A stretch of 64,000 nt of DNA, from assembly GCA_036253035.1 (NCBI GenBank), contig GCA_036253035.1_4123.1, one strand, 5' to 3'. The translations under genes were made by a program, and so were the position numbers. The stretch is from a phage. The notes under the pieces were generated by a model, which saw nothing but the letters and a program-made list of their open reading frames with translations, ran no database searches and had not been told where the DNA came from. Numbering within the stretch: the first letter of the stretch is position 1; each line of letters starts with the position of its first letter. Positions 15,475-36,447 of the stretch are shown one piece after another.

Positions 15475-15502
15475 ATAATATATGAATTGTATAAAAAGTC
15501 AA
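15475..15502 (-). promoter_or_regulatory. sigma70-like promoter for the LGTNYQE array (TTGACT-N16-TATTAT)
   Basis: Minus-strand -35 at 15497-15502, -10 at 15475-15480; only promoter-like site upstream of the 26-gene array. Confidence 0.5.
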
Positions 15503-15693
15503 TAACATTTTATTCGTAATACCCCTTTATCGAAGTCGCTAAGGTTACCCGCCCTTTAGCCCCCTACGCATTTTGCCATAGTCCAATCCCTTTTATTTTA
15601 AAAAAGTCAAGGGATTACCTATGCATTTTTTTAACGCATTATTTTAAAAACGCCTTGACTTTTTTCTGAATCAGTACTAGATCCCTTTACGCA

Positions 15694-15903
15694 TTAATCC
15701 TTCGTTACGCTAACGATTATCTGTGTATCCCCGTAGTCCTGCCATACTTCCACGCCATCCGTCGCCCTGGTTAGTCGTGCTGTCATCTGCTTAACAGTCT
15801 TAGGCTTTAGTGGAACCTGTTGCAGTACTGTACGCATAGCATCACTGACGTTATCATGTACGCCAGCAATAGTACCTAGAACGCTGTATACTGTATAGAA
15901 CAT
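15694..15903 (-). CDS. hypothetical protein (69 aa)
   Basis: ATG with AGGAGG RBS 8 nt upstream. Confidence 0.6.
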   Translation of the reverse strand: MFYTVYSVLGTIAGVHDNVSDAMRTVLQQVPLKPKTVKQMTARLTRATDGVEVWQDYGDTQIIVSVTKD

Positions 15904-15971
15904 ATGTATGCCCTCCTGATATAGTTAAGGCCGCTAGAGAGCGGCCTATGATGTTTGGTGATGTGTAATGC

Positions 15972-16373
15972 TTACAGCCCTAAGATAGTGCGTGCTTCGT
16001 TACGTTCCGTCCATAGCTGCATGATGTGAGCAAGTAAGTCCTTACTAATGTATCCGGTGTTCATAGCTTCACGGATAGATACATCATAAGCACCGAACCC
16101 CGTGCGAACGATACGCACATCATTTAGGTTAGTGTTATAGATACCGCCAAGATCAACGGCTTCGAATACTGCATCAACTGAATACTCATTGTTACCATCG
16201 TTGAAGTTTTCTAGTGCAATAGTATTGGATACCGCCCAACGTTTGCAGTTTCCAATGATGCGGCATTGTTCCGGTTGGAGAGTGCCATTACTTACAGCGT
16301 ACTCCAGTGCATCTTTACCAAAAGTCCGAGCCAGTACTAAAACGTCAGCGAAGGAAGTGATTGAGAAGGTCAT
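15972..16373 (-). CDS. hypothetical protein (133 aa)
   Basis: Start moved to ATG of MTFSITSF with AAGGAG RBS; track N-terminal extension runs through 5' hairpin. Confidence 0.6.
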   Translation of the reverse strand: MTFSITSFADVLVLARTFGKDALEYAVSNGTLQPEQCRIIGNCKRWAVSNTIALENFNDGNNEYSVDAVFEAVDLGGIYNTNLNDVRIVRTGFGAYDVSIREAMNTGYISKDLLAHIMQLWTERNEARTILGL

Positions 16374-16462
16374 GATAAAACTCCTTAATTTAGGAGGGAG
16401 AACCATTTCCCCCTCTCTATGTAAAACATTATACTTGATTCTAAGTACAATGCAAGTACTTT

Positions 16463-16789
16463 TTACATTTTAATTCCTGGATTCAGGTAACGATGTGATC
16501 CGTATTCTGGATCGGTTTCGGTCCAGTACTGTAAATCGATAGTACCTTTAGCGTTAATCTTGTCTACCAGCTTATTCATCTTACTGTAGACTACTTCGCT
16601 AGGGATGTAGTGTAATCCTTTATTATAGAAGTAGTGGTTAGCTTCACTATCGTTTAAGATATAGCGTGCACCGTTTGCGGTTTGTGCAACAATGAAAGAG
16701 TATTCTACTTCCCGATCATTACCATCAACAGTAATGCGGTCGAAATTGGTACGGATGAAAGCTTTAACGATAGCGATTGAAGTACTCAT
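16463..16789 (-). CDS. hypothetical protein (108 aa)
   Basis: ATG with AGGAG RBS; upstream GC hairpin and TTGACA promoter. Confidence 0.6.
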   Translation of the reverse strand: MSTSIAIVKAFIRTNFDRITVDGNDREVEYSFIVAQTANGARYILNDSEANHYFYNKGLHYIPSEVVYSKMNKLVDKINAKGTIDLQYWTETDPEYGSHRYLNPGIKM

Positions 16790-16889
16790 GGTGAATCTCC
16801 TAACTTTGTGGGCCGTCGCACCATTGCCGCCCTACGAGATACATTATTGCAGTACTGATATACTTTGTCAATACTTTTTCTATTAAAAT

Positions 16890-17105
16890 TTATTTACAGA
16901 ACTGTAGCCCGACTGTGTTCGGATAGTACACACATCTTTCACGCTTACCGCTAAACGCAGATATCCAGGATAATTTGTATGCCACTGGTTCCGGTGCAAG
17001 AGGATTATTTGAATAATCGAGAACTTTAACAATTAAACGGTCCCCAACATACCAGCCAGTTGACTCTTTGATACGGTCGATAATTTCTTGTTTGGTTAAC
17101 GCCAT
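16890..17105 (-). CDS. hypothetical protein (71 aa)
   Basis: Start moved to ATG of MALTKQEI; track GTG start lies inside 5' hairpin. Confidence 0.5.
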   Translation of the reverse strand: MALTKQEIIDRIKESTGWYVGDRLIVKVLDYSNNPLAPEPVAYKLSWISAFSGKRERCVYYPNTVGLQFCK

Positions 17106-17322
17106 TTTATATCTCGCTCTTTTGGAGGTGGGCTGCACTATTGCCGCCCTACGAGATACATTATCTCAGTACTGATATACTTTGTCAATACTTTTTTTGA
17201 AATAGTTTTGAGTACTGGCATTACATCCACCAGCAGATAGTTACTCACCGTTATTAACTATCTTATAGATACTTCTCTGCACCCTGTGGGCTAGTTTTTG
17301 TCTATGCGTATATAATAGCAAA

Positions 17323-17352
17323 GGGACTGACCGGAGTCAATCCCTTTTTTTT
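17323..17352. terminator. intrinsic terminator hairpin (GGGACTGACCGGAGTCAATCCC + T8) with embedded minus-strand TTGACT-N17-TATTAT
   Basis: 9-bp stem with one mismatch, CGGA loop, T-run on plus side; member of 6-copy element family. Confidence 0.55.
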
Positions 17353-17363
17353 ATTCTTTTTTG

Positions 17364-17564
17364 TTAGATGATTCTCCAATCTTCTACCAGGATTTTAATA
17401 TACCGTACCAGTGATTCGAGTGATTCCACTTCCCGATAATCGGTAGCCGTTTGCACTGTACAAGTACAGCCGATCAAGCCATTGCCAAGCTCTTTGATCT
17501 GTACATCGATGCAGTTGGCTTTTGCTTCATTCAGTACTGCAACCAATTCGTTAGCGATTGACAT
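17364..17564 (-). CDS. hypothetical protein (66 aa)
   Basis: ATG with AGGAG RBS; 5' hairpin GCGGGAGAACTATTCCCCCGC and promoter upstream. Confidence 0.6.
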   Translation of the reverse strand: MSIANELVAVLNEAKANCIDVQIKELGNGLIGCTCTVQTATDYREVESLESLVRYIKILVEDWRII

Positions 17565-17652
17565 AATGTTTTACTCCTAAAGGTGCGGGAGAACTATTCC
17601 CCCGCTCTATGTAAAACATTATACATTATCTTGTAGTACTGTCAAATAGTTT

Positions 17653-17910
17653 TTATGAAATATCTTCGATATAGTCGGCCCATGTCATTTGTTCAGTACT
17701 ATCTAGTGCACCAGGATTATTTGGATCAAACCATTCGCCATCCCCTAAGTACATTGCAGCCGCTACCGCTTTATAGCCATTATAGGCGTTATTCCACTGC
17801 ATAGCACGATAGATACGGCCTTTGATTGGTGTCTGTACTGGTAATGTTTTATGGTCTTCTACGTAGGCCATAGCTTGAGGATTTACCCGATATTGTGTGA
17901 ACTGTTCCAT
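17653..17910 (-). CDS. hypothetical protein (85 aa)
   Basis: Start moved to ATG of MEQFTQYRV with AAGGGGA RBS; TTGACA-N17-TGTAAT upstream. Confidence 0.55.
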   Translation of the reverse strand: MEQFTQYRVNPQAMAYVEDHKTLPVQTPIKGRIYRAMQWNNAYNGYKAVAAAMYLGDGEWFDPNNPGALDSTEQMTWADYIEDIS

Positions 17911-17985
17911 TATGTTTCCCCTTGTAGTTAGTAAAGTTATTACATCAGTACTATCACGCATTGTCAATAGTACTGAAATAAAACT

Positions 17986-18210
17986 TTAGATTAGATTATT
18001 GATGCCGTTGATGGTAGACTCGCTTTCTTCTTTCTCCCATTGGCGGTAATACTTCCATGCTTCATGATAGGTGGCGATCAGTTCATCTTTTTGATCCTGA
18101 GTACATGCCAGTACTGAATCACTGTAAGCGGTGTTATAGATAGAATCAAATGATTTCTTCTCTTCTGCCAGGGTAGCTACTTCCCGCATCAGTTCATCAA
18201 AGTTAGCCAT
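17986..18210 (-). CDS. hypothetical protein (74 aa)
   Basis: ATG with AAGGAG RBS; 5' hairpin GGGGGAGGATATCTCCCCC. Confidence 0.6.
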   Translation of the reverse strand: MANFDELMREVATLAEEKKSFDSIYNTAYSDSVLACTQDQKDELIATYHEAWKYYRQWEKEESESTINGINNLI

Positions 18211-18293
18211 TTTAGTACTCCTTATTAGTGGGGGAGGATATCTCCCCCTATGTAAAACATTATACTTTGTTTTACTTACAATGCAAGTACTTT

Positions 18294-18485
18294 TTAAATT
18301 TTATTTCCGATATAGTCCGGCCTGTTCTTTTCGGTCATACGCTTAAGCATTTTTTGCATATGGCTTATTGCTTGTAGTGTATCCTCTTCCAGCGATGAAT
18401 CAAGATAATCAGGATCATTCTTCACCTTACAATGATTATGATAGCGTAGTACTGCCAGTACTTTTTTAACTTCTTCTACTGTCAT
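18294..18485 (-). CDS. hypothetical protein (63 aa)
   Basis: Start overlaps stop of upstream gene (ATGA). Confidence 0.5.
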   Translation of the reverse strand: MTVEEVKKVLAVLRYHNHCKVKNDPDYLDSSLEEDTLQAISHMQKMLKRMTEKNRPDYIGNKI

Positions 18486-18754
18486 AATAAGTATTCCACT
18501 TCGTTTGCTTTCAGGTTAGTATCAATCATCAGTGGTTTTTTGTAGTCCACAAAACGATTAGTTTTCTCGATAGCGAAGCCCATATAATCCAGTTTGCTTA
18601 CAGTACATTCATTCTTAAAAACTTCTTTCGCTGCATTGATGGCTGATTCAATTGATAACCGCCCATCTAAATTAATGTTACCAAATGATCCACCAGCAGA
18701 AGTAGGATTACCGTTCATATCTTTAATAATCATAGTAGCGGAGTAGCTGGACAT
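18482..18754 (-). CDS. hypothetical protein (90 aa)
   Basis: ATG downstream of promoter and hairpin. Confidence 0.6.
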   Translation of the reverse strand: MSSYSATMIIKDMNGNPTSAGGSFGNINLDGRLSIESAINAAKEVFKNECTVSKLDYMGFAIEKTNRFVDYKKPLMIDTNLKANEVEYLL

Positions 18755-18776
18755 AATTTTGTTTCCTTTTATTGGT

Positions 18777-18836
18777 GGGGAGAGCTATTCTCCCCTTGAT
18801 GTAAACTATTATACAGTACTGATATACTTTGTCAAT
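18777..18836 (-). promoter_or_regulatory. early-type promoter (TTGACA-N16-TATAAT) plus 5'-proximal GC stem-loop
   Basis: -35 at 18831-18836, -10 at 18809-18814, hairpin GGGGAGAGCTATTCTCCCC at 18777-18795 about 7 nt after predicted TSS; no U tract follows. Confidence 0.6.
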
Positions 18837-18838
18837 AC

Positions 18839-19060
18839 TTAATTACGTTTAAAATGATATGTACCGTTATCATCCTGTACGCCCCATACTGATTTACCAT
18901 CAACACCAGTGAAGCCGGATTGTAATTCAATATGGAAACCGTTAGCATCAACGACGAAAACTTTTTTATTTTCATCCCGATAGCATTGATATTCTTCACC
19001 TGCTTTAAATGCTGCATCATTCAGAAGATTTGAAGCGTGAACGCAGGTCATAGTAGTCAT
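18839..19060 (-). CDS. hypothetical protein (73 aa)
   Basis: Start moved to ATG of MTTMTCVHAS with AAAAGGA RBS; track extension runs through hairpin. Confidence 0.55.
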   Translation of the reverse strand: MTTMTCVHASNLLNDAAFKAGEEYQCYRDENKKVFVVDANGFHIELQSGFTGVDGKSVWGVQDDNGTYHFKRN

Positions 19061-19248
19061 CGTCTTGATTCCTTTTAGTACCAGGGAGAACCATTTCCCC
19101 CTCTCGATATAAAACATTATACGCTCATTGAGATAGTTTGCAAGTACTTTTTATAAAATAGTTTTCAGTACTGAATACTTATATAATAGATACACTTCCG
19201 CACCCTATGGGTCAGTGAGTTATCTCTCAATGAATATATAATAGCAAA

Positions 19249-19276
19249 GGGACTGACTGGAGTCAATCCCTTTTTT
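19249..19276. terminator. intrinsic terminator hairpin with embedded minus-strand promoter
   Basis: GGGACTGACTGGAGTCAATCCC + T6; same element family as 17323. Confidence 0.5.
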
Positions 19277-19284
19277 AATCTTTT

Positions 19285-19869
19285 TTATCGTGTTATAGTT
19301 ATCGCGTTAACATCACGTTTTTTATAGTACTGATTCCAGATATTGCGGGTTAAACCGTAATCAAGTACTTTAATCAAGCCGTTGCGATCCTGGCCGATAT
19401 TCTGTTTTCTGATATCTCTTATCGTTAGTGTGGATAATGTATCATCAACGTGATTGAGAGCATCAGCGAAATGGTGATGGCGTTCTACCGTATTACGTTT
19501 AATATTGTACTTTAACTCATTGCACGCGTTTACATGCTTTACACTGCCTTTGCTTGCAGTACTCAAACGATCCATAACAATAAACAGATTATCAGGATCG
19601 CATAAATGCATATGCACTTTAGCAAAGTACTGTTTAAGGTGCGGACGGTCATAATCTAAAAAATTCCATACCTTACATTCAGTTTCATTTTGTTCTACAC
19701 CCGCATCACAATTCGCGACCTTAATCACTAACCGATCATTTAAAGCGAATACAATACGGGAAGAACCCGCACCGACGATCTCCAGTCCAGCTAACCGACA
19801 AGCTGAAAGGATCTCTTTGTTGGTTTCCATTGCATGAAGTGAACGGATGAATTTAGTATAGTTACGCAT
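19285..19869 (-). CDS. putative protein kinase-like protein (194 aa)
   Basis: Gly-rich loop GAGSSRIVF, VIKVA lysine, catalytic-loop-like IRDIRKQNI, DFG-like VLDYGL; start moved to ATG of MRNYTKF with AAGGAG RBS. Confidence 0.55.
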   Translation of the reverse strand: MRNYTKFIRSLHAMETNKEILSACRLAGLEIVGAGSSRIVFALNDRLVIKVANCDAGVEQNETECKVWNFLDYDRPHLKQYFAKVHMHLCDPDNLFIVMDRLSTASKGSVKHVNACNELKYNIKRNTVERHHHFADALNHVDDTLSTLTIRDIRKQNIGQDRNGLIKVLDYGLTRNIWNQYYKKRDVNAITITR

Positions 19870-19900
19870 TGTGTTGACTCCTTGAGTTAATGAAACTATA

Positions 19901-20143
19901 TTACAGTACTTTACTATCAATGGCAACTACTTTTTTTACTTGAACTGCGTGGAATACTTCACGCGTATTTTTAGTACTGAATACTTTTGCCGTACCTTGT
20001 TCGACCGCAATACGATAGCGACCGTTAACGTCCACCATATTGATAAAGTCCGGTGTACTGAATGGAGTTACCCGGCATTTAAGAACGGTTAACAGTTCCA
20101 CCAGCGTTGTAGTCTCTTTGATACGTTTTTCTAAAGTAATCAT
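19901..20143 (-). CDS. hypothetical protein (80 aa)
   Basis: Start moved to ATG of MITLEKRI downstream of TTGACA-N17-TACTAT; track extension reads through the promoter. Confidence 0.55.
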   Translation of the reverse strand: MITLEKRIKETTTLVELLTVLKCRVTPFSTPDFINMVDVNGRYRIAVEQGTAKVFSTKNTREVFHAVQVKKVVAIDSKVL

Positions 20144-20196
20144 TTTGTTTTCCCCGTGTTGGTATGCATTCATAGTACTAAAACATTTGAGTACTG

Positions 20197-20451
20197 TCAA
20201 CGTGATATTAGTTTTATTTTTTTATTGTATTGTTGGTGTTCATATAGATTAATTTTTCCAGTACTCTCGATCACTATTCTATTGTTAGTGTCTACATCGA
20301 TAACACGTAGTTTCCCGTTGCTTAACTTCCTGGGTAATAGACTACCATTAATAAACTCATTAGCAAGCTGTACGGCCTTTGTGATGATTCTCTGTGGGGC
20401 TTTATAGTGTACCCGTAATACATTATCGTTTGATAGTTGAACCTTAATCAT
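20197..20451 (-). CDS. hypothetical protein (84 aa)
   Basis: ATG immediately downstream of terminator hairpin. Confidence 0.5.
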   Translation of the reverse strand: MIKVQLSNDNVLRVHYKAPQRIITKAVQLANEFINGSLLPRKLSNGKLRVIDVDTNNRIVIESTGKINLYEHQQYNKKIKLISR

Positions 20452-20463
20452 TTTGTTTATCCT

Positions 20464-20490
20464 ATAAAAAAGGCGGGAACTATTCCCGCC
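20464..20490 (-). terminator. rho-independent terminator (minus strand)
   Basis: GGCGGGAACTATTCCCGCC followed on minus strand by U6; downstream of gene 20514..20909. Confidence 0.6.
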
Positions 20491-20513
20491 GTGTTGTTAG
20501 TACTGCAAAGTTA

Positions 20514-20909
20514 TTAGATAACCTGGCGGCGTTTACTGTATACTGTTACACGGTTTCCTTTACGGTCATGACGGATCTCTTTCTGGTTACGAATCAGTTC
20601 ACTTGGACGCTTAAGGTTTGCCAGGTGATCCGCGTGAGTCCATGCATTTGCGTTAACTGTAACTTCAATATCAGAACCTTTCAAAAAGTCATCTTGAGCG
20701 TTCAGTACTTCAGCCAGTTCTTGAGCTTGCTTTAGTTCTGCTGCTGTAAGTACAGGCTCAGGTGAATTCACAATATCAGAGATCTCTTTGAACTGTACCG
20801 CCCAGCGTTGTCCTTTCGGTGCATCTTTGCCCATGTCTTTAAATGTTTCACCTTCTTCACGGGCAACGATGCGAGCTTGTTCACGGGTAGCGAAGAATTT
20901 AGTAATCAT
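20514..20909 (-). CDS. hypothetical protein; paralog of 33264..33530
   Basis: Shares FATRExARIxAR..TFKDMG..RWAV and C-terminal HDRKGNRVTVYS with 33264 gene; TTGACA-N17-TATAAT upstream. Confidence 0.65.
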   Translation of the reverse strand: MITKFFATREQARIVAREEGETFKDMGKDAPKGQRWAVQFKEISDIVNSPEPVLTAAELKQAQELAEVLNAQDDFLKGSDIEVTVNANAWTHADHLANLKRPSELIRNQKEIRHDRKGNRVTVYSKRRQVI

Positions 20910-21008
20910 GGTGTACATCCTATTAGTTAAGTTAATTAGTACTACAAGTTAGAGTCTATTATAAAGTACTATCTGGGCAATGTCAAATAGTACTTTAAAT
21001 GGATTCTA

Positions 21009-21332
21009 TTACATGTCTTTCTTACGTTTTACATCGTAGTAGCGAACTGTAATTTCTTTGTTGATCTCTTCCTCGATGCGGTGAATAACTTTTTCTTTCG
21101 GGTTGAAACCTATTACAGTTTCTTTAATGATCTCCAAGCCCGTGTATTCGCCTTGTGTACCGTAACCGTAAGTAAAGGTTTCATGTCCCAGGTCTTCCCA
21201 GCGGTCACCAATCAATGCAGACACGTAGCATGAGTGGTAAGTATTGCCGTGGCTATCAGTCCACCGATTAACTTTAATGTCAAAGGAAGTTACAATTTTC
21301 ATTTCTACTTTCTGGGTAAGGATCATAGTCAT
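21009..21332 (-). CDS. hypothetical protein; paralog of 28216..28560
   Basis: Shares GNTY(H/F)S, YGYG and C-terminal DVKRKKD with 28216 gene; AGAGAG RBS. Confidence 0.65.
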   Translation of the reverse strand: MTMILTQKVEMKIVTSFDIKVNRWTDSHGNTYHSCYVSALIGDRWEDLGHETFTYGYGTQGEYTGLEIIKETVIGFNPKEKVIHRIEEEINKEITVRYYDVKRKKDM

Positions 21333-21419
21333 TTTAATTTCTCTCTTTTAGTTAGGAGGGGAACCATTCCCCTGCCTTGATGTAAACTATTATACAGTAC
21401 TAAGATACTTTGTCAATAC

Positions 21420-21695
21420 TTAAGTATTGTAAATGTCGTGAATAGTGATAAAGTTTTTACGACCGTAAACATGTAAATCAGTATCAATGTAGTGCTTATC
21501 AAGTACATCCTCGACGCTTAAAGCCGTGTCGTGAATATCTTCATAGAATTGTGGATCTACAATCTTACTTAAATCATCCGGCGTTAACTTATCATTGAGC
21601 CATTGCACCGCCTGGATATCTGCATCACGTTTCCAGTCTTCCAGGTTAGTAGTCAGTACTTGCTCGATTTCGTTAGCTGTCAGTAGAATCCGCAT
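21420..21695 (-). CDS. hypothetical protein (91 aa)
   Basis: ATG with AAGAGAG RBS; 5' hairpin GTGGGGAACTATTCCCCAC. Confidence 0.6.
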   Translation of the reverse strand: MRILLTANEIEQVLTTNLEDWKRDADIQAVQWLNDKLTPDDLSKIVDPQFYEDIHDTALSVEDVLDKHYIDTDLHVYGRKNFITIHDIYNT

Positions 21696-21784
21696 TTTAA
21701 TTTCTCTCTTTGTTAGGTGGGGAACTATTCCCCACTTGATGTAAAATATTATACAGTACTAAAAACTATTGTCAAACTATTTTA

Positions 21785-21985
21785 TCAAATTGTTTCCCAT
21801 TTCATGTTACCCGCTTTACGCTGTGAAACAGGAATAAACATGTTATTAATGTTACTAATATAACCGACCTGTAAGTCACGCTGTGAACCATACGCCCGAC
21901 TTGCTGCATTTTTAGCACCGCGTTCTGATTTATAAACGCCGCTGGATACTGTAAAGCCTACTACACCGAAAGTAAAATGTTTCAT
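21785..21985 (-). CDS. hypothetical protein (66 aa)
   Basis: ATG with AGAGGA RBS; TTGACA-N16-TATAAT upstream. Confidence 0.6.
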   Translation of the reverse strand: MKHFTFGVVGFTVSSGVYKSERGAKNAASRAYGSQRDLQVGYISNINNMFIPVSQRKAGNMKWETI

Positions 21986-22270
21986 TTTGTATTCCTCTTT
22001 GTGGTTGATGTAAGTATTATACTCGTTTAATTTCTATTGTCAAACTATTTTATCAGGGGAGGTTTTCGTATGTCTTACTCCTGGACTACTTAACGGGGTT
22101 ACTTATTTCGTTCCCCGTCCTGATGTAAAACATTATACTTGATTCTAAGTACAATGCAAGTACTTTTTAAAAATAGTTTTCAGTACTTGATAGTACTAGC
22201 CACCAGCATATAATAGATACATTTATGCACCCTGTGGGTTAGATTGTTTCTATGCATATATAATAGCAAA

Positions 22271-22298
22271 GGGACTGACCGGAGTCAATCCCTTTTTT
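22271..22298. terminator. intrinsic terminator hairpin with embedded minus-strand promoter
   Basis: GGGACTGACCGGAGTCAATCCC + T6. Confidence 0.5.
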
Positions 22299-22306
22299 AA
22301 ATCTTT

Positions 22307-22456
22307 TTAAACTTGTTTTGGGTTGCGATATGTGATAGCGTTCGGGTACATTTGTTTAATGTTATTCCATGCCTGGTTAACATTGTAACCACTTGATCGA
22401 ATCAGTTGGTTACTTCCTACGCCCTGGAACACTACTTCGAATAAGAATTCTTTCAT
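22307..22456 (-). CDS. hypothetical small protein (49 aa, below track cutoff)
   Basis: Manually translated MKEFLFEVVFQG...; start overlaps stop of upstream small ORF. Confidence 0.4.
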   Translation of the reverse strand: MKEFLFEVVFQGVGSNQLIRSSGYNVNQAWNNIKQMYPNAITYRNPKQV

Positions 22457-22623
22457 GCTGCAATCCCCTCTGATTTACCTTTACGCCAGGCGTTAGCCAG
22501 TTCATTACGTTGCCATACATCCAATGCAATGTATAGTTTAGCAGTATCCCCTTTAGGGTATTCGCCAGTAGTGCCTAACCGATAAAACAGATCTTTCAGT
22601 ACTGATAATTCTACTTGGATCAT
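22453..22623 (-). CDS. hypothetical small protein (56 aa, below track cutoff)
   Basis: Manually translated MIQVELSVLKDLFYRLG...; ATGA overlaps on both sides. Confidence 0.4.
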   Translation of the reverse strand: MIQVELSVLKDLFYRLGTTGEYPKGDTAKLYIALDVWQRNELANAWRKGKSEGIAA

Positions 22624-29394: not shown

Positions 29395-29463
29395 TTTTTA
29401 AATCCTTCTCAGTAGTTGATGTAAAATATTATACAGTACTTAAAACTATTGTCAAACTATTTT

Positions 29464-29616
29464 TTAAAGACTATCTACGATAGCTGCCGTTTCAATAATA
29501 GACTTACCTTTTTTTGAACATGCAATAACTGCTTTAAATTCCTTTGATGACCAATCTTTCTTGCTGCATACTGACATTACTTGTAACGTGAAACAATCCA
29601 GTTCATAAGTATTCAT
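29464..29616 (-). CDS. hypothetical small protein (50 aa, below track cutoff)
   Basis: Manually translated MNTYELDCFTLQVMSVCSKK...; GAGGA RBS; TTGCAC-N16-TATAAT. Confidence 0.45.
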   Translation of the reverse strand: MNTYELDCFTLQVMSVCSKKDWSSKEFKAVIACSKKGKSIIETAAIVDSL

Positions 29617-29848
29617 CTTTAAATCCTCAGTTAGTTAAGGTGTCTTGCCTTGATGTAACTAATTATACGCCTTTCTCTTAATCGTGCAAGTACTTTTTAT
29701 TACTTTTTGCAAAATACTTTAAACGCTCTCAATCGCATTCTAACGGCCTTAACTCCACCAGCTAGGGCGATGCATCAGATAATCAGTTTAATGCGTTAGA
29801 ATCGATTCTATGAGGTGCTGACGGCATGGAATACTATAGACACAAAAA

Positions 29849-29869
29849 AGCCCACTGTATAAGTGGGCT
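29849..29869 (-). terminator. rho-independent terminator (minus strand)
   Basis: AGCCCACTTATACAGTGGGCT followed on minus strand by U6; downstream of gene 29891..30373. Confidence 0.65.
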
Positions 29870-29890
29870 AGTGATTCAGTACTTTAAATG

Positions 29891-30373
29891 TTATGCTTCA
29901 ATTTTGCGGTGAGATTCGATCCATTCCTCGCGAGTCATACCGCTTTCTTTGATTGCATCCAGTACTACCGCAATGCAGTTACCGCGTACAGGAATCAAAT
30001 GTTCTTCCCCGTTATCAAGGACAACAGTAACACGTTCTTGAATCCATTTTTTAGGCTTAGATTCCGGCTTATCTTCACCGTACTTAACCGCCAGGGCTTT
30101 ATGTGCCATTTCAATAACCACTTCCAGATCTAAACCAGACACCGCCGCCTGAATACTTTCTATTGTTGCTTGCAGTTCTGCTTCACGGGCTTTTTTCTGT
30201 TCTTCCAGTTCTGCTACCTTTTTGGCTTGTAGTTCTTTCGCTTCACTGTAAGCAATGTTAAAATTGTTGCGTACTGCTTTCATGGTATCATTATCCAGGT
30301 CAGCCAGCAATTCAGCAGCAATAACAGTATCGTTAGAAATCAGTGCTTTCAGAAATGATTTTACATTAGCCAT
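29891..30373 (-). CDS. hypothetical coiled-coil-rich protein (160 aa)
   Basis: Start moved to ATG of MANVKSFL with GAGGA RBS; long conserved leader upstream. Confidence 0.6.
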   Translation of the reverse strand: MANVKSFLKALISNDTVIAAELLADLDNDTMKAVRNNFNIAYSEAKELQAKKVAELEEQKKAREAELQATIESIQAAVSGLDLEVVIEMAHKALAVKYGEDKPESKPKKWIQERVTVVLDNGEEHLIPVRGNCIAVVLDAIKESGMTREEWIESHRKIEA

Positions 30374-30574
30374 TTTATAAATCCTCAATTAAAGTTTAAG
30401 TTAGTTTATCAAAGTTTGTTTGACGTGTCCAGTTTTTCATTCGACTTACTGGCGGTCTACTTAATGTTCCCCGTCTTGATGTAATACATTCTACGCTTTT
30501 CCCTGGTAATGTCAACTACTTTTTTAAAACTATTTTCAAAGTATACCAGTACTACGATACTACAAAAACAAAAA

Positions 30575-30595
30575 AGCCCACTGTATAAGTGGGCT
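30575..30595 (-). terminator. rho-independent terminator (minus strand)
   Basis: Identical hairpin to 29849 copy, U-run on minus strand; downstream of gene 30613..30912. Confidence 0.65.
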
Positions 30596-30612
30596 AGTGA
30601 TTCAGTACTATA

Positions 30613-30912
30613 TTATAAACAATTAATTACGCCAGTGAATGTAACTTTCTCTGTATCCATTACAGTGACAGAACCGCGTTTACTTTTTGCATCGTAATAG
30701 ATGGTCGTGCTACCCTGATCATCTTCTTCATGGTACGGGCCATTAGCAAACATTGCAGGGGCCAGTTCCAGGGATTTGGTAACGATCTCAGCCGTTTCCT
30801 CGTTAGTCATTGCAACAGTGCACTGAATGAATTTTTCTTTCGGTACATCAACGGAAGCGTTAACAGCGAAAGAGGAAACAGATAAAGCCAGGGCGATGAT
30901 TGCAGTTTTCAT
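30613..30912 (-). CDS. putative secreted/periplasmic protein with N-terminal signal peptide
   Basis: MKTAIIALALSVSSFAVNA = basic n-region, hydrophobic core, AxA-like cleavage site; TTGATA-N16-TATAAT. Confidence 0.6.
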   Translation of the reverse strand: MKTAIIALALSVSSFAVNASVDVPKEKFIQCTVAMTNEETAEIVTKSLELAPAMFANGPYHEEDDQGSTTIYYDAKSKRGSVTVMDTEKVTFTGVINCL

Positions 30913-31024
30913 TTGTATATCCTTTGTTAGTACTAGGGAGTATTCCCGATTAGATGTAAAACATTATACGCATTTAAAAACTATTATCAAGTACTTTAAT
31001 ATAAAAGTATTTGAAAAAAAAGTC

Positions 31025-31053
31025 TTGACAACTGCATCCAGTACTGGCATAAT
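31025..31053 (+). promoter_or_regulatory. plus-strand sigma70-like promoter (TTGACA-N17-CATAAT)
   Basis: -35 at 31025-31030, -10 at 31048-31053; downstream transcript would carry dyad ACCCACAGGGTGC and end at hairpin 31134-31151. Confidence 0.5.
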
Positions 31054-31059
31054 ACTTAC

Positions 31060-31160
31060 ATAAAGACGAGATAGTCACTAACCCACAGGGTGCATAGATC
31101 CGTCTATTAAATGATTCAGTACTGCAAAATAAAGGGGATCGTTTGATCCCCTCTGTATTA
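31060..31160 (+). ncRNA. candidate small non-coding RNA (~100 nt)
   Basis: Region between plus-strand promoter and hairpin/U-rich tract; no ORF; contains family dyad motif. Confidence 0.3.
31134..31151. terminator. bidirectional terminator hairpin
   Basis: GGGGATCGTTTGATCCCC flanked by A/T-rich tracts on both sides; downstream of minus gene 31158..31379. Confidence 0.5.
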
Positions 31161-31379
31161 CTTAGTAAGATATAAACAAAAATCACCTTTCTTTGCTACG
31201 CCGCCAGTGTAACGCGATGAATAGTTAGAAACGTCTTGCACTTCTGCAATGACGAGCGTATCATCATTTATTTCGTCGCAAAAACATACTGCGGGATCTT
31301 CTACGCCAATATTGTCAGCATGTGCCCGCATAGATTTAACCAGTGCTTCAAGCTGGGAAAGAGTAGTGATATTAGCCAT
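31158..31379 (-). CDS. hypothetical protein (73 aa)
   Basis: ATG with AAGGAG RBS; hairpin; TTGCAA-N16-TATAAT. Confidence 0.6.
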   Translation of the reverse strand: MANITTLSQLEALVKSMRAHADNIGVEDPAVCFCDEINDDTLVIAEVQDVSNYSSRYTGGVAKKGDFCLYLTK

Positions 31380-31466
31380 TGTAAAACTCCTTATTAGTGG
31401 GGAGAACCATTTCTCCCCTTGATGTAAACTATTATACAGTACTGGAAACTAATTGCAAGTACTTTT

Positions 31467-31670
31467 TTAATTTAATTGCTTTAAAACATAATCAAAGACA
31501 CCACGCACATCATTGATCATCGCCTGGCGGTTAGCAGGTAACGCATCAGGATCGCCACTATCCCAGGCATTAATGAAGCCACCTAAATCATGGAATACTT
31601 TATTCCGTAACCCGATCAACTGCAATTCTTTTTCTTCAAGCTCTTTGATACGTTTAATTAAATCACTCAT
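31467..31670 (-). CDS. hypothetical protein (67 aa)
   Basis: Start moved to ATG of MSDLIKRI with GAGGA RBS. Confidence 0.55.
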   Translation of the reverse strand: MSDLIKRIKELEEKELQLIGLRNKVFHDLGGFINAWDSGDPDALPANRQAMINDVRGVFDYVLKQLN

Positions 31671-31687
31671 TAGATAATCCTCAGTAC

Positions 31688-31972
31688 TCAATTGTAAGAT
31701 CCGCAACGGTCGCAGTAGTGCCCGTCCTCGTCATCTTCTACCACTTGCCCGATGAAATGATCTACTTTCGCTTTCAGGTTATTATAATCGTTTTCTACTT
31801 CCTTTAAACGCTTCTGGTAGTATTCCAGTGCTTTAAGATATGCCGCATCAGTAGTTTTCTCCTGCATAGCTAAATTCATGCCACGCGTTTCATCGTACAG
31901 CCAAAAACCATCGGTGCACTCACTTATAGACAATGACTTGCTTAACACATTGTACTTTATTACTTTACTCAT
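31688..31972 (-). CDS. hypothetical protein with C-terminal CxxC (94 aa)
   Basis: ATG with GAGGA RBS; ends ...HYCDRCGSYN. Confidence 0.6.
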   Translation of the reverse strand: MSKVIKYNVLSKSLSISECTDGFWLYDETRGMNLAMQEKTTDAAYLKALEYYQKRLKEVENDYNNLKAKVDHFIGQVVEDDEDGHYCDRCGSYN

Positions 31973-32057
31973 TAGATAATCCTCAGTAAAGGCGGGAACT
32001 ATTCCCGCTCTCGATATAAAGTATTATACGTTAATCTAATTACTTTGCAAGTACTTT

Positions 32058-32294
32058 TTAGTGCTTTTTATAAAACATCTCAGCGGTGATATTTTTACCC
32101 GTTGGTTGTACTTTATCCAGGATCTTTTGGTGTGCACTACGCCCGAAAGAATAAGAACCGTAAACCGTTAGCCAGTAGTCGCCATTTTGGTTTACATGTA
32201 CCGCACAATAGGGAACGCCCCGCGAATCGTCACCAATGAAGTGTGATACTGTACCCGTTACGTTTGGTGTTGTAGTTTTGATTTGTTCGATCAT
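32058..32294 (-). CDS. hypothetical protein (78 aa)
   Basis: Start moved to ATG of MIEQIKTT with AGGAG RBS. Confidence 0.55.
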   Translation of the reverse strand: MIEQIKTTTPNVTGTVSHFIGDDSRGVPYCAVHVNQNGDYWLTVYGSYSFGRSAHQKILDKVQPTGKNITAEMFYKKH

Positions 32295-32352
32295 TTCTCT
32301 TACTCCTGGGATATAGGCGGGAACCATTCCCCGCCATTGATTCAGTACTGAA

Positions 32353-32964
32353 TTAATATGCGATAGATTCTACTACATCGTCGATAACGTTAAATTGATA
32401 TTCGTTACCCTCGATCAGTGCTACAATGTTTTCAGTAGTAAACTGGTCTTCATAAGCATTTTCTAAATCACGGTACAGCTTACAAGATAATTCTCGGATA
32501 GTATCAGTCAGTAAGTTTTCCAGATCCTCAGCTAATGCAGCCTGTTTTACAGTTAAATCAGTGTAGCGAGTATCAACGCAACCGCCTACCGTGTTTTCGT
32601 GTGCATAACGCGATTGGGAACGTTCTACACTCATTTCCAAATCATCTTCGTTCAACAGGTGACGGATGGAACGATATTTCGTTAACGCCTTAACCTTGCG
32701 TAAAAACTTCTCAGCGTCAACGTGGTCAGTACTGATTGATGCACCGTCACCTTGCGACCAAAAACCACTGTATTGCAATTCAGCTTCATCTATGCCGTAT
32801 TCTGGTAGTACTGTTTCTTTATAGTATTCCAGTACTGATTCAGCAAAGAAATTATCCTCACTTGCACGTTCCCGATCCCGAACCAGTTCGATAGCCGCCG
32901 TTTGTTGTTCTGCGTTCAGTTCAGAAAAAGCCATAACAAAAGTAGTAGTAGTGATAGTTTTCAT
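32353..32964 (-). CDS. hypothetical acidic protein (203 aa)
   Basis: Start moved to ATG of MKTITTTT with GAGGGT RBS; D/E-rich; conserved long leader upstream. Confidence 0.6.
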   Translation of the reverse strand: MKTITTTTFVMAFSELNAEQQTAAIELVRDRERASEDNFFAESVLEYYKETVLPEYGIDEAELQYSGFWSQGDGASISTDHVDAEKFLRKVKALTKYRSIRHLLNEDDLEMSVERSQSRYAHENTVGGCVDTRYTDLTVKQAALAEDLENLLTDTIRELSCKLYRDLENAYEDQFTTENIVALIEGNEYQFNVIDDVVESIAY

Positions 32965-33263
32965 TTTGTAACCCTCATTCATTAGTTGATGTAAGTATTA
33001 TACGCTTTTACTTTCTATTGTCAAACTATTTTATCAGGGGAGTTTTTCATACGTCTTACTCCTGGACTACTTAACAGGGAGTTACTTATTTCATTCCCCG
33101 TCCTGATGTAAAACATTATACGCCTTTAAACATAGTTTGCAAGTACTTTTTGAAAATAGTTTTTAGTACTTTCCTATAGATACACTCCCGCACCCTATGG
33201 GCTATCGCCTTGTGTCCGGCTTGTAAGTATTATCTCACTAAGCCGGATAACGGTCAAGTACTT

Positions 33264-33530
33264 TTATTCAAGTACTGCAATCTTTTTAGTACTGTACACT
33301 GTAACGCGGTTGCCCTTGCGGTCGTGCTTTATTTCTACCACGCGACGCGATACACTATCAGGACGCTTTAAAGCAGATAGCCAGTACTGAATTGATCGGG
33401 CTGTACTTTGCTTTACTACGGCCCAACGTTTACCACGTTCAGATTGTACGCCCATATCTTTAAACGTCGCCCCGTCCTGGCGTGCGGCAATCCGAGCAAG
33501 TTCACGCGTTGCAAAGTATATAATATTCAT
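33264..33530 (-). CDS. hypothetical protein; paralog of 20514..20909
   Basis: Start moved to ATG of MNIIYFATREL; shares FATRE..ATFKDMG..HDRKGNRVTVYS. Confidence 0.6.
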   Translation of the reverse strand: MNIIYFATRELARIAARQDGATFKDMGVQSERGKRWAVVKQSTARSIQYWLSALKRPDSVSRRVVEIKHDRKGNRVTVYSTKKIAVLE

Positions 33531-33612
33531 GCTGTTACCCCTATCGTTGTTGTATAAAAGAAATCTATTATAAAGTACTATCACCGTGCAATAGTACTTT
33601 TAATCTATTCTC

Positions 33613-33852
33613 TTACATTCCAACCATCGCCGCACGGATCGCAGTAGTGCTATACTTAAAGCCGTCCGGTGTTTTATCTTGTCCAGTCTGTTCTAAAAAT
33701 AGCATCATATGACGGGCCGCATCATTACGATTAGTGTTAGCGGCAATAAAGTCCTGGGCCAACCGGTATAATGATTCGTCGTTATTAATCCAAAGGCTTA
33801 CATTCCATTGAGTTTTGTTTTTGTGACCTAAGAACATTTTTGATTTAGCCAT
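33613..33852 (-). CDS. hypothetical protein (79 aa)
   Basis: Start moved to ATG of MAKSKMFLG with AGAGGA RBS. Confidence 0.55.
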   Translation of the reverse strand: MAKSKMFLGHKNKTQWNVSLWINNDESLYRLAQDFIAANTNRNDAARHMMLFLEQTGQDKTPDGFKYSTTAIRAAMVGM

Positions 33853-33945
33853 TTTTTTAATCCTCTTATATAGTGGGGAACTATTCCCCACCTGATGTAA
33901 AACATTATACGCTTTTAAACTTAGTTTGCAAGTACTTTATTAAAC

Positions 33946-34308
33946 TTATTCGTAAATCTTTCCACTATCAGCCCATACCAGGAAACGAGGCATATTATCC
34001 CATGCATCTTGTTTTAAGTTTAAGCCGTGCAATACTTCTGTACTTTCCATTCCTGGTACTGGCTTGCTATACACTGCAAACATTTCGCCCATGTACTGAT
34101 AAGCCATCGTTAAATCAGTCTGGATCATCTTATGTATCATTGCGTCCAGCATTGCAGTAGCTGCATACTGTTCACGCTTAAGCGGTAACATTGCAATCAA
34201 TTCCCGATAAGCTGCAATGTGAATCCGTACAGTCTCAGCGGGAAGATCTTTCATCTCTTCACGGAAAGAAACCAGGTTAAGCATGATAGTATTGATTTGA
34301 GTCGCCAT
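33946..34308 (-). CDS. hypothetical protein (120 aa); first gene of early minus-strand block
   Basis: ATG with AAGAGA RBS; hairpin CGGGAGCGTATCCCCCG; TTGCAA-N16-TAGAAT. Confidence 0.6.
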   Translation of the reverse strand: MATQINTIMLNLVSFREEMKDLPAETVRIHIAAYRELIAMLPLKREQYAATAMLDAMIHKMIQTDLTMAYQYMGEMFAVYSKPVPGMESTEVLHGLNLKQDAWDNMPRFLVWADSGKIYE

Positions 34309-34618
34309 CGTTTTAATCTCTTTTAAAAGTGAGTCGGGAGCGTATCCCCCGTCTCGATGTAAAACATTCTACACCTTTCCCAATACTTTGCAAGTACTTT
34401 CTACAAATACTTTTAAAATAGTTTTCTTTCTATATAGGGGAACTATCTTTCAGTACTGAATCAACCAAATCACTACTATACACCCCATAAAACGGCCTCA
34501 GCCGCTTTCTAACGCATTAATACACCTAAGCTATACATTTGCACCGCCACCAGCTAACCAGGGCTTTACGGGCCGTTTAAACGCGTTAAATTATTTTCAA
34601 TTATTTTGTTTTTAGCTA

Positions 34619-34646
34619 TTGACTCAGCACCGAAAAAGCGTATAAT
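34619..34646 (+). promoter_or_regulatory. plus-strand sigma70-like promoter (TTGACT-N16-TATAAT)
   Basis: -35 at 34619-34624, -10 at 34641-34646; reads into non-coding hub carrying family leader motifs. Confidence 0.5.
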
Positions 34647-35086
34647 TACTACATAGACGCGAGAAAGCGGATACCCCTGGGGGGTGCGGAATTACGCCCA
34701 AAATTCATATAATTTAAAAAGGATACACTCCCGCACCTTAGCAGGTCATAGCACTTTCTCAGTACTGAATAATAGTATCATAGTACGCCCCAGGATGGCA
34801 AGCAAATTAATTAAAACTTTTTGCGTTTAGGGTATTGCTTTATTTTTTCAGTACTGCTATAATATTTTCATCAAGTCGAGAAAGACTCAAGCCCACCGGG
34901 TGCATAGTTACGCCCAAAATTCAGTACTGAAAAAAATTTTAAAAATATCCGTCCAGGCCGTTGACATTGCCCCCAGTTTATAAGATAATGATTCCAGATT
35001 CAGAAAAATCTAACTCCAGATACTGCGGGGAAACTATCCCCACGCGGTAGGGGAACTATTGGAAAAAACAAAATAAAATTTTGATT

Positions 35087-35200
35087 TAGCCGTCTATACT
35101 TCCAGACGTGTAACCATCTAGCCGTTTAGCCGTCCAAACGTCTAGCCATCCAGCCATCCAGAAATCTAGCCGTCTAGCCGTCTAGATGGATAGCCATCTT
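35087..35200. repeat. iteron-like direct repeats, ~10 copies of TAGCC(G/A)TC
   Basis: ttagccgtctat / ctagccgtttagccgtcc / tctagccatccagccatccag / ctagccgtctagccgtctagatggatagccatc. Confidence 0.6.
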
Positions 35201-36051
35201 TACTTCCAGACTTCTGGAGGGCTAGACATATCTACGTCCAAAATCCATCCAGGGTAACTACGCCCAAAATCCGTCAGTACTATACCATAGATCTATCTTG
35301 TGAAAGGAGTATTCAGTACTGCCATCATAGCCCTCACTATGTTACCCTAGGAGGATGAAGACTATCATGTAGTACTGAATACTGTTAGAGGGAATCCACC
35401 AGCACAAGCTGGTGGCATAATGCTTTAGATTAAAATCAGTACTGACACCATTCTGTTAATATCAGTACTGTTATTACGATTTTCATATGAGGTTCAAAAA
35501 GATGTACCACCACAGGAGGAACTATCTTTTCTGTACTGTCTCACGACAGGAGGTAGAGTAAATGAATTGTTGGCAGCAACTCATCTCTCTATGTAGAACA
35601 TTATACAGTACTGAATCATAATGTCAATAACTTTCTTTCATTATTCAGTACTGATATTCTTGAGAACTACCCGTCTACAAACATCATTATATCCCACAAA
35701 TCATAAACGTCCCAACGTAAATTTCAACTTTCGAAGATCCAACTTTTATTTCATAGGTACTCCAAAATTTTTAGGATCGAGATTTAGGATGGAGTACTAA
35801 CCAACTTTTTGCTGGAGCCTCAAGGGGTAATGGAATTTTACCCCGAAGGGTAAAAGGGTAATTGTAATTAAGGTGAAAGTAATAATTCAGTACTAATCAT
35901 TGCGTGATTACTTTTGATTACATTTGATGTAATTTGCAAAATGGAAAAGGAGCTTGGAAACTACAAAGTACGGCAGACTTCCTCTGCCTACTTAGTGGCA
36001 TATCAGTACTGCTACGTTCTTGATTAAACGTGAACATTCCTGTACTCTAGT

Positions 36052-36140
36052 ACTCACTACTGATCACTACTGATCACTACAGTGATTATAAATGATTACT
36101 TAAATGTTTATATATGATTACTTATGACTACCTATGATTA
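36052..36140. repeat. short tandem direct repeats (CACTACTGAT x3; ATGATTAC x3)
   Basis: ctcactactgatcactactgatcactacagtgattataaatgattacttaaatgtttatatatgattacttatgactacctatgattac. Confidence 0.55.
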
Positions 36141-36255
36141 CGGGGTTTAGCCTGGGGAGAATCCTAGTGATCGCATTTGTCCAGGCTGAATTTTAACAAT
36201 TCGCCTGTACATAAAGGTTGTTCACTAGGAGCTTCCCCTGTCTACTTGTGTTTAA

Positions 36256-36447
36256 TTACTTCCTATATATAAGCATTAAGATATAGTAGTACTGATTATA
36301 CTGTACATTCTCTTTAATATTATAAGGGTCTATAGCAATCTCGGTACATCTGTTAAATGCATATCTATTAAATGCCAGTGGAATTATAGATCTAATCCAT
36401 ACTTGTTCATTTTCTTTTAGTTTACTTATATAGAAGTTTTTATACAT
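36256..36447 (-). CDS. MHKEYY-family small protein
   Basis: MYKNFYISKL...ILMLIYRK; last gene of tandem array. Confidence 0.55.
   Translation of the reverse strand: MYKNFYISKLKENEQVWIRSIIPLAFNRYAFNRCTEIAIDPYNIKENVQYNQYYYILMLIYRK

Follow-up and report, generated by a model that had tools for sequence, protein, structure and literature searches.

AGTACT is a selected, genome-wide palindrome in Rak2-like jumbo phages

The palindromic hexamer AGTACT occurs 237 times in a 64,000-nucleotide stretch of phage DNA (GenBank assembly GCA_036253035.1, contig GCA_036253035.1_4123.1; hereafter the window, to which all window coordinates refer). Dinucleotide shuffles of this stretch yield 20.4 ± 4.4 copies, and the largest number found in any shuffle is 30. 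Our analysis shows that selection on the nucleotide sequence maintains AGTACT across the genome and across an entire phage clade, and that its copies are evenly spread, with a maximum in the direct terminal repeat (DTR), where they take up fixed slots in promoters.

By megablast (best matches 90–99% identity), the window belongs with PBECO4, 121Q, G17 and phAPEC6 in a group of jumbo coliphages of ∼350 kb (genus Asteriusvirus). Whole-genome figures were obtained from a complete, unannotated relative in the same group, the Escherichia phage ECO103 4-12-1 (351,992 bp; hereafter ECO103), to which the window is 90.5% identical. In phage G17, the DTR spans 20,668 bp (positions 1–20668 of the record are identical to 350150–370817). 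The ends of this repeat map to window positions 15542 and 35992, and hence the interval 15500–36300, in which a preliminary description of this DNA had noted an abundance of AGTACT, is almost exactly the DTR.

15542–35992, no strand assigned: DTR equivalent, delimited by mapping the G17 repeat ends onto the window and present once in it

The DTR holds ∼50 genes, comprising small early genes on the minus strand, each with its own sigma-70-type promoter cassette. Over the window as a whole, genes lie on the minus strand from 1 to ∼39900, on the plus strand from 39978 to 57290, and again on the minus strand up to the end.

AGTACT is the most over-represented hexamer

AGTACT is the top over-represented hexamer of the window, at 11.6 times the order-1 Markov expectation, and the extended form CAGTACTG is found 49 times where 1.0 copy is expected. 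The interval 15500–36300 alone has 127 AGTACT sites versus 6.6 expected. The preliminary description, which considered the word far too frequent for a hexamer and proposed counts against shuffled and Markov expectations as a check, is borne out by these ratios, none of which is near 1. Its view that the excess is intergenic holds only in part. In the same interval, 71 copies are intergenic but 56 lie within open reading frames (ORFs), and sites extend across the window from 7558 to 63456. Moreover, 146 of the 237 copies are coding (2.7/kb), compared with 89 that are fully intergenic (9.3/kb). The DTR is the densest zone, with ∼6 sites/kb overall and 11/kb in its intergenic DNA. Many intergenic copies belong to a single repeated family of promoter cassettes, and hence are not independent events.

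In the ECO103 genome, AGTACT is also the hexamer with the highest observed-to-expected ratio. There are 919 copies where ∼102 are expected (9-fold; approximately one per 380 bp), and CAGTACTG occurs 204 times. All 5-kb bins are raised (4–40 sites), with the maximum in the DTR equivalent. Most sites (83%) are inside ORFs, and their profile along genes is flat, without bias toward gene starts or ends. Such a many-fold, genome-wide excess of a palindrome over both Markov and shuffle expectations is a property of the HIP-type sequences considered below.

Restriction-type words are otherwise nearly purged from this genome. Of the 64 palindromic hexamers, 23 have zero copies in the 352 kb of ECO103, as do the asymmetric restriction-type words GGTCTC, CTCCTC, CAGCTC and GGCACC. 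The tetramer GCGC is absent where 180 copies are expected, compared with ∼6.8/kb in a 50-kb sample of E. coli, and GATC is avoided (0.59-fold). The window contains only two copies of any of 26 near-absent palindromes, both of them ACCGGT, at 33762 and 50411. Against this near-total purge, AGTACT is the lone, extreme exception.

AGTACT is a restriction site of the ScaI/Eco255I type, and a phi92-like coliphage has eliminated this hexamer as a restriction target (2 copies versus 45 expected). Unlike that avoided site, the word is enriched 9-fold in ECO103 and 9–13-fold in Rak2-like phages, and genome ends lie elsewhere. Because the G17 termini (AGGTTACCC... and ...CTGCCTACT) lack AGTACT, cutting of the genome ends by terminase or a ScaI-like enzyme does not account for the word. 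Its density on phage DNA (2.6/kb, and ∼6/kb in the DTR) is 40–100-fold that of the host, as judged from a single small sample of E. coli K-12 with 3 copies per 50 kb (0.06/kb).

Selection acts on the nucleotide sequence

When synonymous codons are shuffled, coding DNA retains 39 ± 6 AGTACT copies in the window and 185 ± 12 in ECO103, versus 146 and 767 observed. The ECO103 genome, to which the following counts refer, encodes Ser-Thr pairs as AGT-ACT in 373 of 709 cases (53%) versus 110 expected, whereas the reverse-order control, Thr-Ser encoded as ACT-AGT, is depleted (37 versus 75 expected). The other two reading frames are raised 5–6-fold (xxA-GTA-CTx, 242 versus 50; xAG-TAC-Txx, 146 versus 23). 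ST, VL and QY dipeptides are in excess as well, unlike TS and LV, and the distortion of codon and dipeptide usage is spread over 555 mostly unrelated genes. Thus, the excess in all frames, the dipeptide excess and the reverse-order control reveal a pressure on nucleotides that is strong enough to shape proteins. As is true of HIP-type palindromes, the word is present in ORFs in every reading frame and overrides codon choice. A protein-level cause, such as a Ser-Thr motif or the multiplication of paralogues, is ruled out by the three frames, the intergenic copies and the reverse-order control.

Sites are also conserved between genomes. Comparison of the window with ECO103 reveals that 84% of coding and 85% of intergenic AGTACT copies are intact, versus 64% and 69% of hexamers located 8–40 bp away. 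Cross-genome conservation above the local background is likewise a HIP-type property.

The flanks of AGTACT are two-fold symmetric, with C preferred at −1 (46% of half-sites) and G at +1. The halves combine independently of each other. Such flanks would suit recognition of duplex DNA by a symmetric protein. In the 280 kb that lie beyond the DTR, the coefficient of variation of the spacing between sites is 0.867 versus 0.998 ± 0.040 for random placement, and none of 5000 simulations gave a value as low. The largest gap between sites in these 280 kb is 2.1 kb versus 3.2 kb expected (P = 0.002), and close pairs are fewer than random. We found no indication of a TrpR-like GTACT-N8-AGTAC spacing or of helical phasing, as a 14-bp peak is absent and peaks near 20 and 40 bp are weak.

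The excess is a trait of the Rak2-like clade

AGTACT and GCGC were counted in phages from several host genera, as follows.

ECO103 4-12-1 (Asteriusvirus group), Escherichia: AGTACT 9-fold enriched; GCGC 0
CBB (Mimasvirus), Pectobacterium: AGTACT 13-fold enriched; GCGC 0
XbC2 (Mimasvirus), Xanthomonas: AGTACT 8-fold enriched in structural genes; GCGC 0
Muenster (Alcyoneusvirus), Klebsiella: AGTACT 11-fold enriched; GCGC 0
PA5oct (distant relative), Pseudomonas: AGTACT 1 versus 7.8 expected; GCGC not purged
A145 (phi92-like coliphage), listed host Campylobacter jejuni: AGTACT 2 versus 45 expected; GCGC not avoided

Members of the Rak2-like clade (Asteriusvirus, Mimasvirus and Alcyoneusvirus) thus have the AGTACT excess in common as a derived trait, whatever their host genus. 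The purge of AGTACT from the phi92-like coliphage indicates that the word is under restriction pressure in this host range. Because the excess tracks the phage clade over four host genera and an unrelated coliphage purges the word, a phage-encoded reader is favored over a host reader. The A145 record (MG065645.1, “Campylobacter phage A145”, UNVERIFIED) is classed as Justusliebigvirus and resembles a phi92-type coliphage; several further “Campylobacter phage” megablast matches to the window may be likewise mislabelled.

No earlier description of the AGTACT excess was found in the searchable literature, including the CBB, RaK2 and EJP2 papers. Published CBB promoter analyses do not mention the word, nor do the promoter, restriction and methylation passages of the RaK2 paper (PMC3622015).

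AGTACT occupies fixed slots in early promoters

A promoter scan identifies ∼40 near-consensus sigma-70 promoters on the minus strand of the DTR, in which AGTACT is found at two slots. At the first slot, the word ends 1–2 nt before the −10 element (AGTACT-G-TATAAT), such that it starts 7–8 bp upstream of this hexamer in 19 promoters. At the second slot, it abuts or overlaps the 5′ edge of the −35 element (AGTAC-TTGCAA or AGTACT-A-TTGACA), with a start at −27 to −30 in ∼17 promoters. When both slots are filled, the two sites start 20–24 bp apart and bracket the −35 element. The position of AGTACT is thus fixed relative to both promoter hexamers, as it would be for an operator. The preliminary description had placed the word in promoter spacers just upstream of the −10 element and had proposed that positional bias relative to −10 boxes be examined, and the 19 promoters of the first slot agree with it on both counts. 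However, approximately one-fifth of DTR promoters have no AGTACT at either slot, and approximately half lack the spacer copy and have ...GCG-TATAAT instead. An operator would be expected in most promoters of the class and mainly in regulatory DNA. AGTACT does not fit this pattern, as many promoters lack copies and 83% of sites genome-wide are coding.

The following features illustrate these arrangements, together with two other settings of intergenic AGTACT.

27080–27112, minus strand: early promoter with two AGTACT sites (27087 and 27107), from the promoter scan
28594–28629, minus strand: early promoter of a second subfamily, AGTACT-A-TTGACA-N9-AGTACT-GG-CATAAT, with a duplicate at 28889–28924 (repeat family D6)
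21719–21794, minus strand: reference copy of the repeated intergenic cassette (repeat families D1–D5 and promoter scan)
34300–36300, no strand assigned: noncoding DNA that covers the final 1.7 kb at the right end of the DTR and 300 bp beyond it
46013–46033, plus strand: terminator-like hairpin located 3′ of an RCC1-like paralogue, in which two AGTACT copies (AGCCAGTACTCAGTACTGGCT) precede a T-run
50501–50520, 56070–56093 and 57946–57969: similar hairpins with two AGTACT copies; G17 labels homologous hairpins as terminators

The promoter at 27080–27112 consists of AGTAC-TTGCAA (−35, 27107–27102), a spacer that ends in AGTACT-G (27092–27087), and TATAAT (27085–27080). The upstream AGTACT runs into the 5′ edge of the −35 element, the downstream one stops 1 nt short of the −10 element, and their starts are 20 bp apart. 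In the promoter at 28594–28629, the −35 element is flanked by sites at 28602 and 28624, at a distance of 22 bp from each other.

The repeated cassette reads, on the minus strand, −35 TTGACA, a spacer with AGTACT, TATAAT, a start region ...ACAT and a 5′ hairpin (GGGGAAtagtTCCCC). At least 16 copies of 76–105 nt with 60–86% identity are dispersed across the DTR, and the stem-loop (GGGGAGAA...TTCTCCCC) comes directly after the start site. These are repeated intergenic units of an early promoter and a stem-loop between small ORFs, and in this they conform to promoter-early stem-loop (PeSL) cassettes. Amplification of cassettes alone was rejected as the cause of the AGTACT excess, as it covers only part of the intergenic copies.

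In the noncoding stretch at the right end of the DTR, isolated (TT)CAGTACTG(AA) palindromes are located at 34451, 34760, 34849, 34922, 35314, 35437, 35463, 35606, 35646 and 36004, and several of the extended palindromes in this stretch are the perfect 12-mer TTCAGTACTGAA. The physical end of the G17 genome maps to 35992. The preliminary description had reported such palindromes in a noncoding hub, and the stretch 34300–36300 matches this account. It had also reported AGTACT in terminator stems, for which the evidence is weak inside 15500–36300 and clear outside of this interval, where the four hairpins listed above each carry two copies; hairpins of this kind are mostly found behind the RCC1-like genes.

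Other repeats and genes near AGTACT-rich DNA

Two additional repeat arrays are found in the same noncoding region. An 8-nt periodic TAGCCGTC array of ∼12 units at 35087–35198 is iteron-like, and 10-nt repeats of the TCACTACTGA or TGATTA type are present at 36054–36141, just past the mapped genome end. The sign of the GC skew flips near 36000. An origin is one possible role for these iteron-like arrays; a signal for packaging or injection is another.

A second DTR repeat of ∼100–140 nt is present at 17260–17360, 19186–19286, 22208–22308 and 26181–26318. It combines a hairpin of terminator type (GGGATTGACTCCGGTCAGTCCC) with a conserved segment, “CCCACAGGGTGCATAAATG”. The repeat has no Rfam match, and no known RNA family was found in the window; the element may be a small RNA or a regulatory module. 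Approximately 54 tiny early ORFs are located at 15694–34308. The only Pfam matches among the DTR ORFs are to a DksA/TraR C4 zinc finger, a GNAT acetyltransferase, a ParE-like toxin domain, DUF7249 and DUF7247, and host-takeover functions are possible for these genes.

The plus-strand block of the window provides an example of the coding excess.

39978–57290, plus strand: array of RCC1/Kelch-like paralogues with 45 coding AGTACT copies (2.7/kb)

This block contains ∼14 tandem paralogues that encode RCC1/Kelch-like beta-propeller proteins of 300–400 amino acids, most of which are followed by a near-identical terminator hairpin and promoter (TTGTATTAAATATAGTATAAT). In relatives, these proteins are labelled “DNA condensation protein”, apparently through a misreading of the RCC1 name.

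Blocks without AGTACT carry a strand-specific variant

The left part of the window includes two blocks that lack AGTACT entirely.

1–7557, minus strand: AGTACT-free block (gap 1), with 0 AGTACT and 41 AGTACA, all sense
7558–11029, minus strand: AGTACT island between the two blocks, with 17 sites, 15 of them coding
11030–15672, minus strand: AGTACT-free block (gap 2), with a weaker version of the AGTACA pattern

The 352-kb ECO103 genome has only two long stretches that are free of the word, and these match gaps 1 and 2. In gap 1, the 41 sense copies of AGTACA (versus 0 antisense) are distributed over the three frames as 16/14/11 and have the same C at −1. The homologous ECO103 block (285–295 kb) has 49 sense copies and 1 antisense copy, compared with a background of ∼3 and 2 per 5 kb. 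A mild sense bias is evident throughout this genome (AGTACA 267 versus TGTACT 156). Gaps 1 and 2 still lack all of the purged palindromes, and hence did not arrive recently from a source free of this constraint.

Possible functions of AGTACT

The interpretation that we tentatively prefer, and to which we give a little less than an even chance, is that AGTACT is a selected, two-fold symmetric DNA tag, that is, a genome-wide iterated palindrome rather than a promoter motif, most likely with a phage-encoded reader. Such a tag would be recognized in double-stranded DNA by a factor that is encoded by the phage, conserved in the clade and symmetric, most likely as a homodimer, and the even coverage of the tag might serve to mark or organize phage DNA. 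Presumably, the DTR enters the cell ahead of the rest of the genome. A reader bound at the promoter slots there would occlude RNA polymerase, with the possible effect of shutting off or otherwise adjusting early transcription. Alternatively, the slots might be mere tag-tolerant positions (the spacer, the region upstream of −35 and hairpin stems) within compact cassettes. The preliminary description had suggested a recognition element for a phage factor. This suggestion agrees with counts far above the null expectations, purifying selection, symmetric flanks and an excess bound to one clade, but the word is not restricted to intergenic or promoter DNA, and no factor was found among the 96 proteins of the window.

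Several observations weigh against the proposed tag. Many early promoters lack it, which indicates that promoter control is not its general role, and the intergenic copies are partly inherited within one cassette family. A Pfam search of the 96 window proteins revealed no sequence-specific DNA-binding domain, whether helix-turn-helix or other. The strand-specific AGTACA block implies that a purely symmetric duplex reader is not the whole story. It is also possible that AGTACT is methylated by the Dam-family enzyme of the phage. Finally, the host density used for comparison comes from one 50-kb sample.

Methyltransferases deserve consideration as readers. The clade encodes a 5-methylcytosine (m5C) methyltransferase (PF00145) and a Dam-family enzyme (PF05869). 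The RaK2 paper also supports two methyltransferases, and reports methylated CpG in RaK2 DNA on the basis of bisulfite sequencing (PMC3622015). The m5C enzyme (286 amino acids; ECO103 43771–44631) aligns end to end with the catalytic domain of eukaryotic DNMT3A/B/C (E about 3×10−23), and does so better than with bacterial M.HhaI or M.HaeIII. A homologue with 51% identity is present in phi92-like phages, which purge AGTACT. Given this apparent CpG-type specificity, the lack of CpG in AGTACT and the homologue in AGTACT-purging phages, the m5C enzyme is very unlikely to be the reader, and we rejected it as an unlikely cognate enzyme. In several Asteriusvirus records, the tblastn match to this protein begins only at residue 78, and its N-terminal part may have been split or lost there.

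A broader proposal, in which AGTACT is a methyltransferase target as has been proposed for HIP1, with its abundance tied to methylation-dependent processes, strikes us as improbable. The clade does carry two methyltransferases, cyanobacterial HIP-type palindromes co-occur with cognate orphan methylases (PMC4390886), and the Dam-family PF05869 enzyme could be specific for AGTACT, with GATC still avoided (0.59-fold). Methylation would also account for the tolerance of 919 ScaI-type sites. Yet the m5C enzyme is DNMT3-like from end to end, has a close homologue in phages that purge the word, and matches the methylated CpG reported for RaK2 DNA, a dinucleotide that AGTACT lacks. Methylation by itself also leaves the selection for more sites and their even spacing unaccounted for.

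We are similarly doubtful that AGTACT is primarily an operator or activator site through which a phage regulator controls the early promoters of the DTR, with all other copies being secondary. This model draws on the fixed slots (19 promoters at 7–8 bp before −10 and ∼17 at −35), the pairs spaced 20–24 bp apart around the −35 element, the peak density in the DTR (11/kb in intergenic DNA) and the perfect 12-bp palindromes of the terminal noncoding stretch. It is difficult to reconcile with the location of 764 of 919 sites (83%) within genes without start or end bias, with the even spacing across 280 kb of middle and late genes, and with the DTR promoters that are tag-less at both slots (approximately one-fifth) or lack the spacer copy (approximately half). 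In addition, the AAAAAGTAC-TTGCAA context overlaps what the consensus for the proximal subsite of UP elements would produce in any case.

A signal in RNA or on one strand, in which (C)AGUAC(U/A) acts in transcripts or in the non-template strand during processing, stability control or pausing and a palindrome simply works both ways, is somewhat less likely still. The AGTACA copies of gap 1 (41 sense, 0 antisense, in three frames and with C at −1), the homologous ECO103 block (49 versus 1) and the genome-wide preference for AGTACA over TGTACT (267 versus 156) speak for such a model. Elsewhere, however, the exact palindrome outnumbers both one-off variants together, its flanks are symmetric, and copies are dense in the terminal noncoding stretch and upstream of transcription starts (in spacers and upstream of −35). 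By chance, moreover, only 64 of 4096 hexamers are palindromic.

Two remaining models seem to us highly improbable. The first is a neutral origin, in which biased repair resembling very-short-patch (VSP) repair, or the copying of cassettes and paralogues, generated functionless sites. The promoter cassettes (at least 16) and the RCC1-like paralogues do multiply some sites, and most one-mismatch neighbours of AGTACT are mildly enriched (1.2–2.1-fold). However, the depletion that repair drive should leave is seen in no one-mismatch neighbour. VSP-type (Dcm/Vsr) drive in particular was rejected, because the deamination product AGTATT/AATACT stands at 1.22-fold and there is no matching m5C methylase, the phage enzyme being of the CpG type. 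Conservation above the flanks, spacing that is more even than random, and the distortion of codons and dipeptides in 555 mostly unrelated genes also contradict neutrality. The second is recruitment of a host DNA-binding protein, for which the named candidate is the nucleoid-occlusion factor SlmA. AGTACT is identical to the central hexamer of the SlmA site (GTGAGTACTCAC), a palindrome bound by a dimeric helix-turn-helix protein (PMC3020112), and sites on the first-entering DNA could act before any phage gene is expressed. SlmA binding needs G, T, purine, A and G at positions 1–5 (PMC3020112), and the phage sites do not satisfy positions 1–3. Position 3 is C in 46% of half-sites, and neither the window nor the 352-kb genome has a single GTRAGYRCTYAC match, so hijacking of SlmA was rejected. 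Furthermore, the excess persists whether the phage host is Escherichia, Klebsiella, Pectobacterium or Xanthomonas, and another coliphage purges the word.

A more speculative extension, which we regard as unlikely, is that phages whose DNA is essentially unmodified distinguish self from non-self by two sequence-based signals, one of which is AGTACT. As the positive signal, AGTACT would be read by a symmetric phage factor that protects, organizes or licenses phage DNA. The word might resemble Chi in directing a phage helicase-nuclease, while being palindromic and independent of orientation, or it might be a signal for a coating protein. As the negative signal, the absence of GCGC could let a GCGC-directed activity destroy or silence only host DNA. 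The strand-specific AGTACA block could then be a differently licensed gene set.

Implications

Loss of palindromes as an escape from restriction is well known in phage genomes, yet here a restriction-type palindrome has been driven to ∼900 even copies. This implies a strongly selected process of DNA-sequence reading in phages that are being developed for therapy and biocontrol. The excess is stable over three jumbo phage genera and four host genera, provides a one-line diagnostic for the clade, accounts for its odd codon usage and flags the AGTACT-free blocks as distinct modules. The function of HIP1-type palindromes has been open for decades, and jumbo phages offer a much smaller and faster experimental system. 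AGTACT tags are worth preserving when these genomes are engineered or recoded.

Comparison with known systems

The layout of the DTR resembles that of known early regions. PeSL cassettes of T4-type phages place a stem-loop and an early promoter between small ORFs in a plastic region. The DTR cassettes are like them in organization, and differ in that the hairpin follows the start site as a 5′ stem-loop. They account only for intergenic AGTACT and not for the coding excess. Phage T5 has a long direct terminal repeat with pre-early (first-step-transfer) genes and very strong sigma-70 promoters. The DTR shares with it small early genes, strong sigma-70 promoters and a repeat-rich noncoding stretch near the end, and its −10 context, CTG-TATAAT-AG, resembles T5 early promoters. 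Here the repeat measures 20.7 kb with ∼50 genes. The likeness to T5, which transfers its DNA in two steps, is one of sequence layout. T5 is not known to have an AGTACT excess.

Chi (GCTGGTGG), DNA uptake sequences and KOPS are over-represented oligomers that distinguish the DNA of one genome, and uptake sequences often form inverted pairs in terminators, as AGTACT does at 46013, 50501, 56070 and 57946. These words are asymmetric and strand-oriented and have known readers, whereas AGTACT is palindromic and ∼10-fold denser. Chi itself occurs 12 times in the window versus 0.6 expected, between 17227 and 35415, with ten copies in the DTR, nine of which are on the minus strand. Because genuine Chi is separately enriched, AGTACT is not simply the Chi of this phage. 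An inverted Chi pair is present at 35396–35415, ∼580 bp from the mapped right genome end. The enrichment of Chi suggests that the ends are protected against RecBCD.

The closest analogue is HIP1 (GCGATCGC) of cyanobacteria. Like AGTACT, it is a short palindrome in many-fold excess throughout a genome, is present both within and between genes, and is conserved above its flanks. Work on HIP1 favors selection over a repair drive and leaves its function unresolved (PMC5861425, PMC4390886). The phage word is a different one, of 6 bp rather than 8 bp, and belongs to a virus instead of a bacterial chromosome. Its spacing is even at the sub-kilobase scale, whereas HIP1 is periodic at 10–90 kb, and in contrast to the link between HIP1 and methylases, the m5C enzyme of the phage appears to be CpG-specific. 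Also unlike HIP1, AGTACT is a restriction-type site that persists in great number amid near-total palindrome purging.

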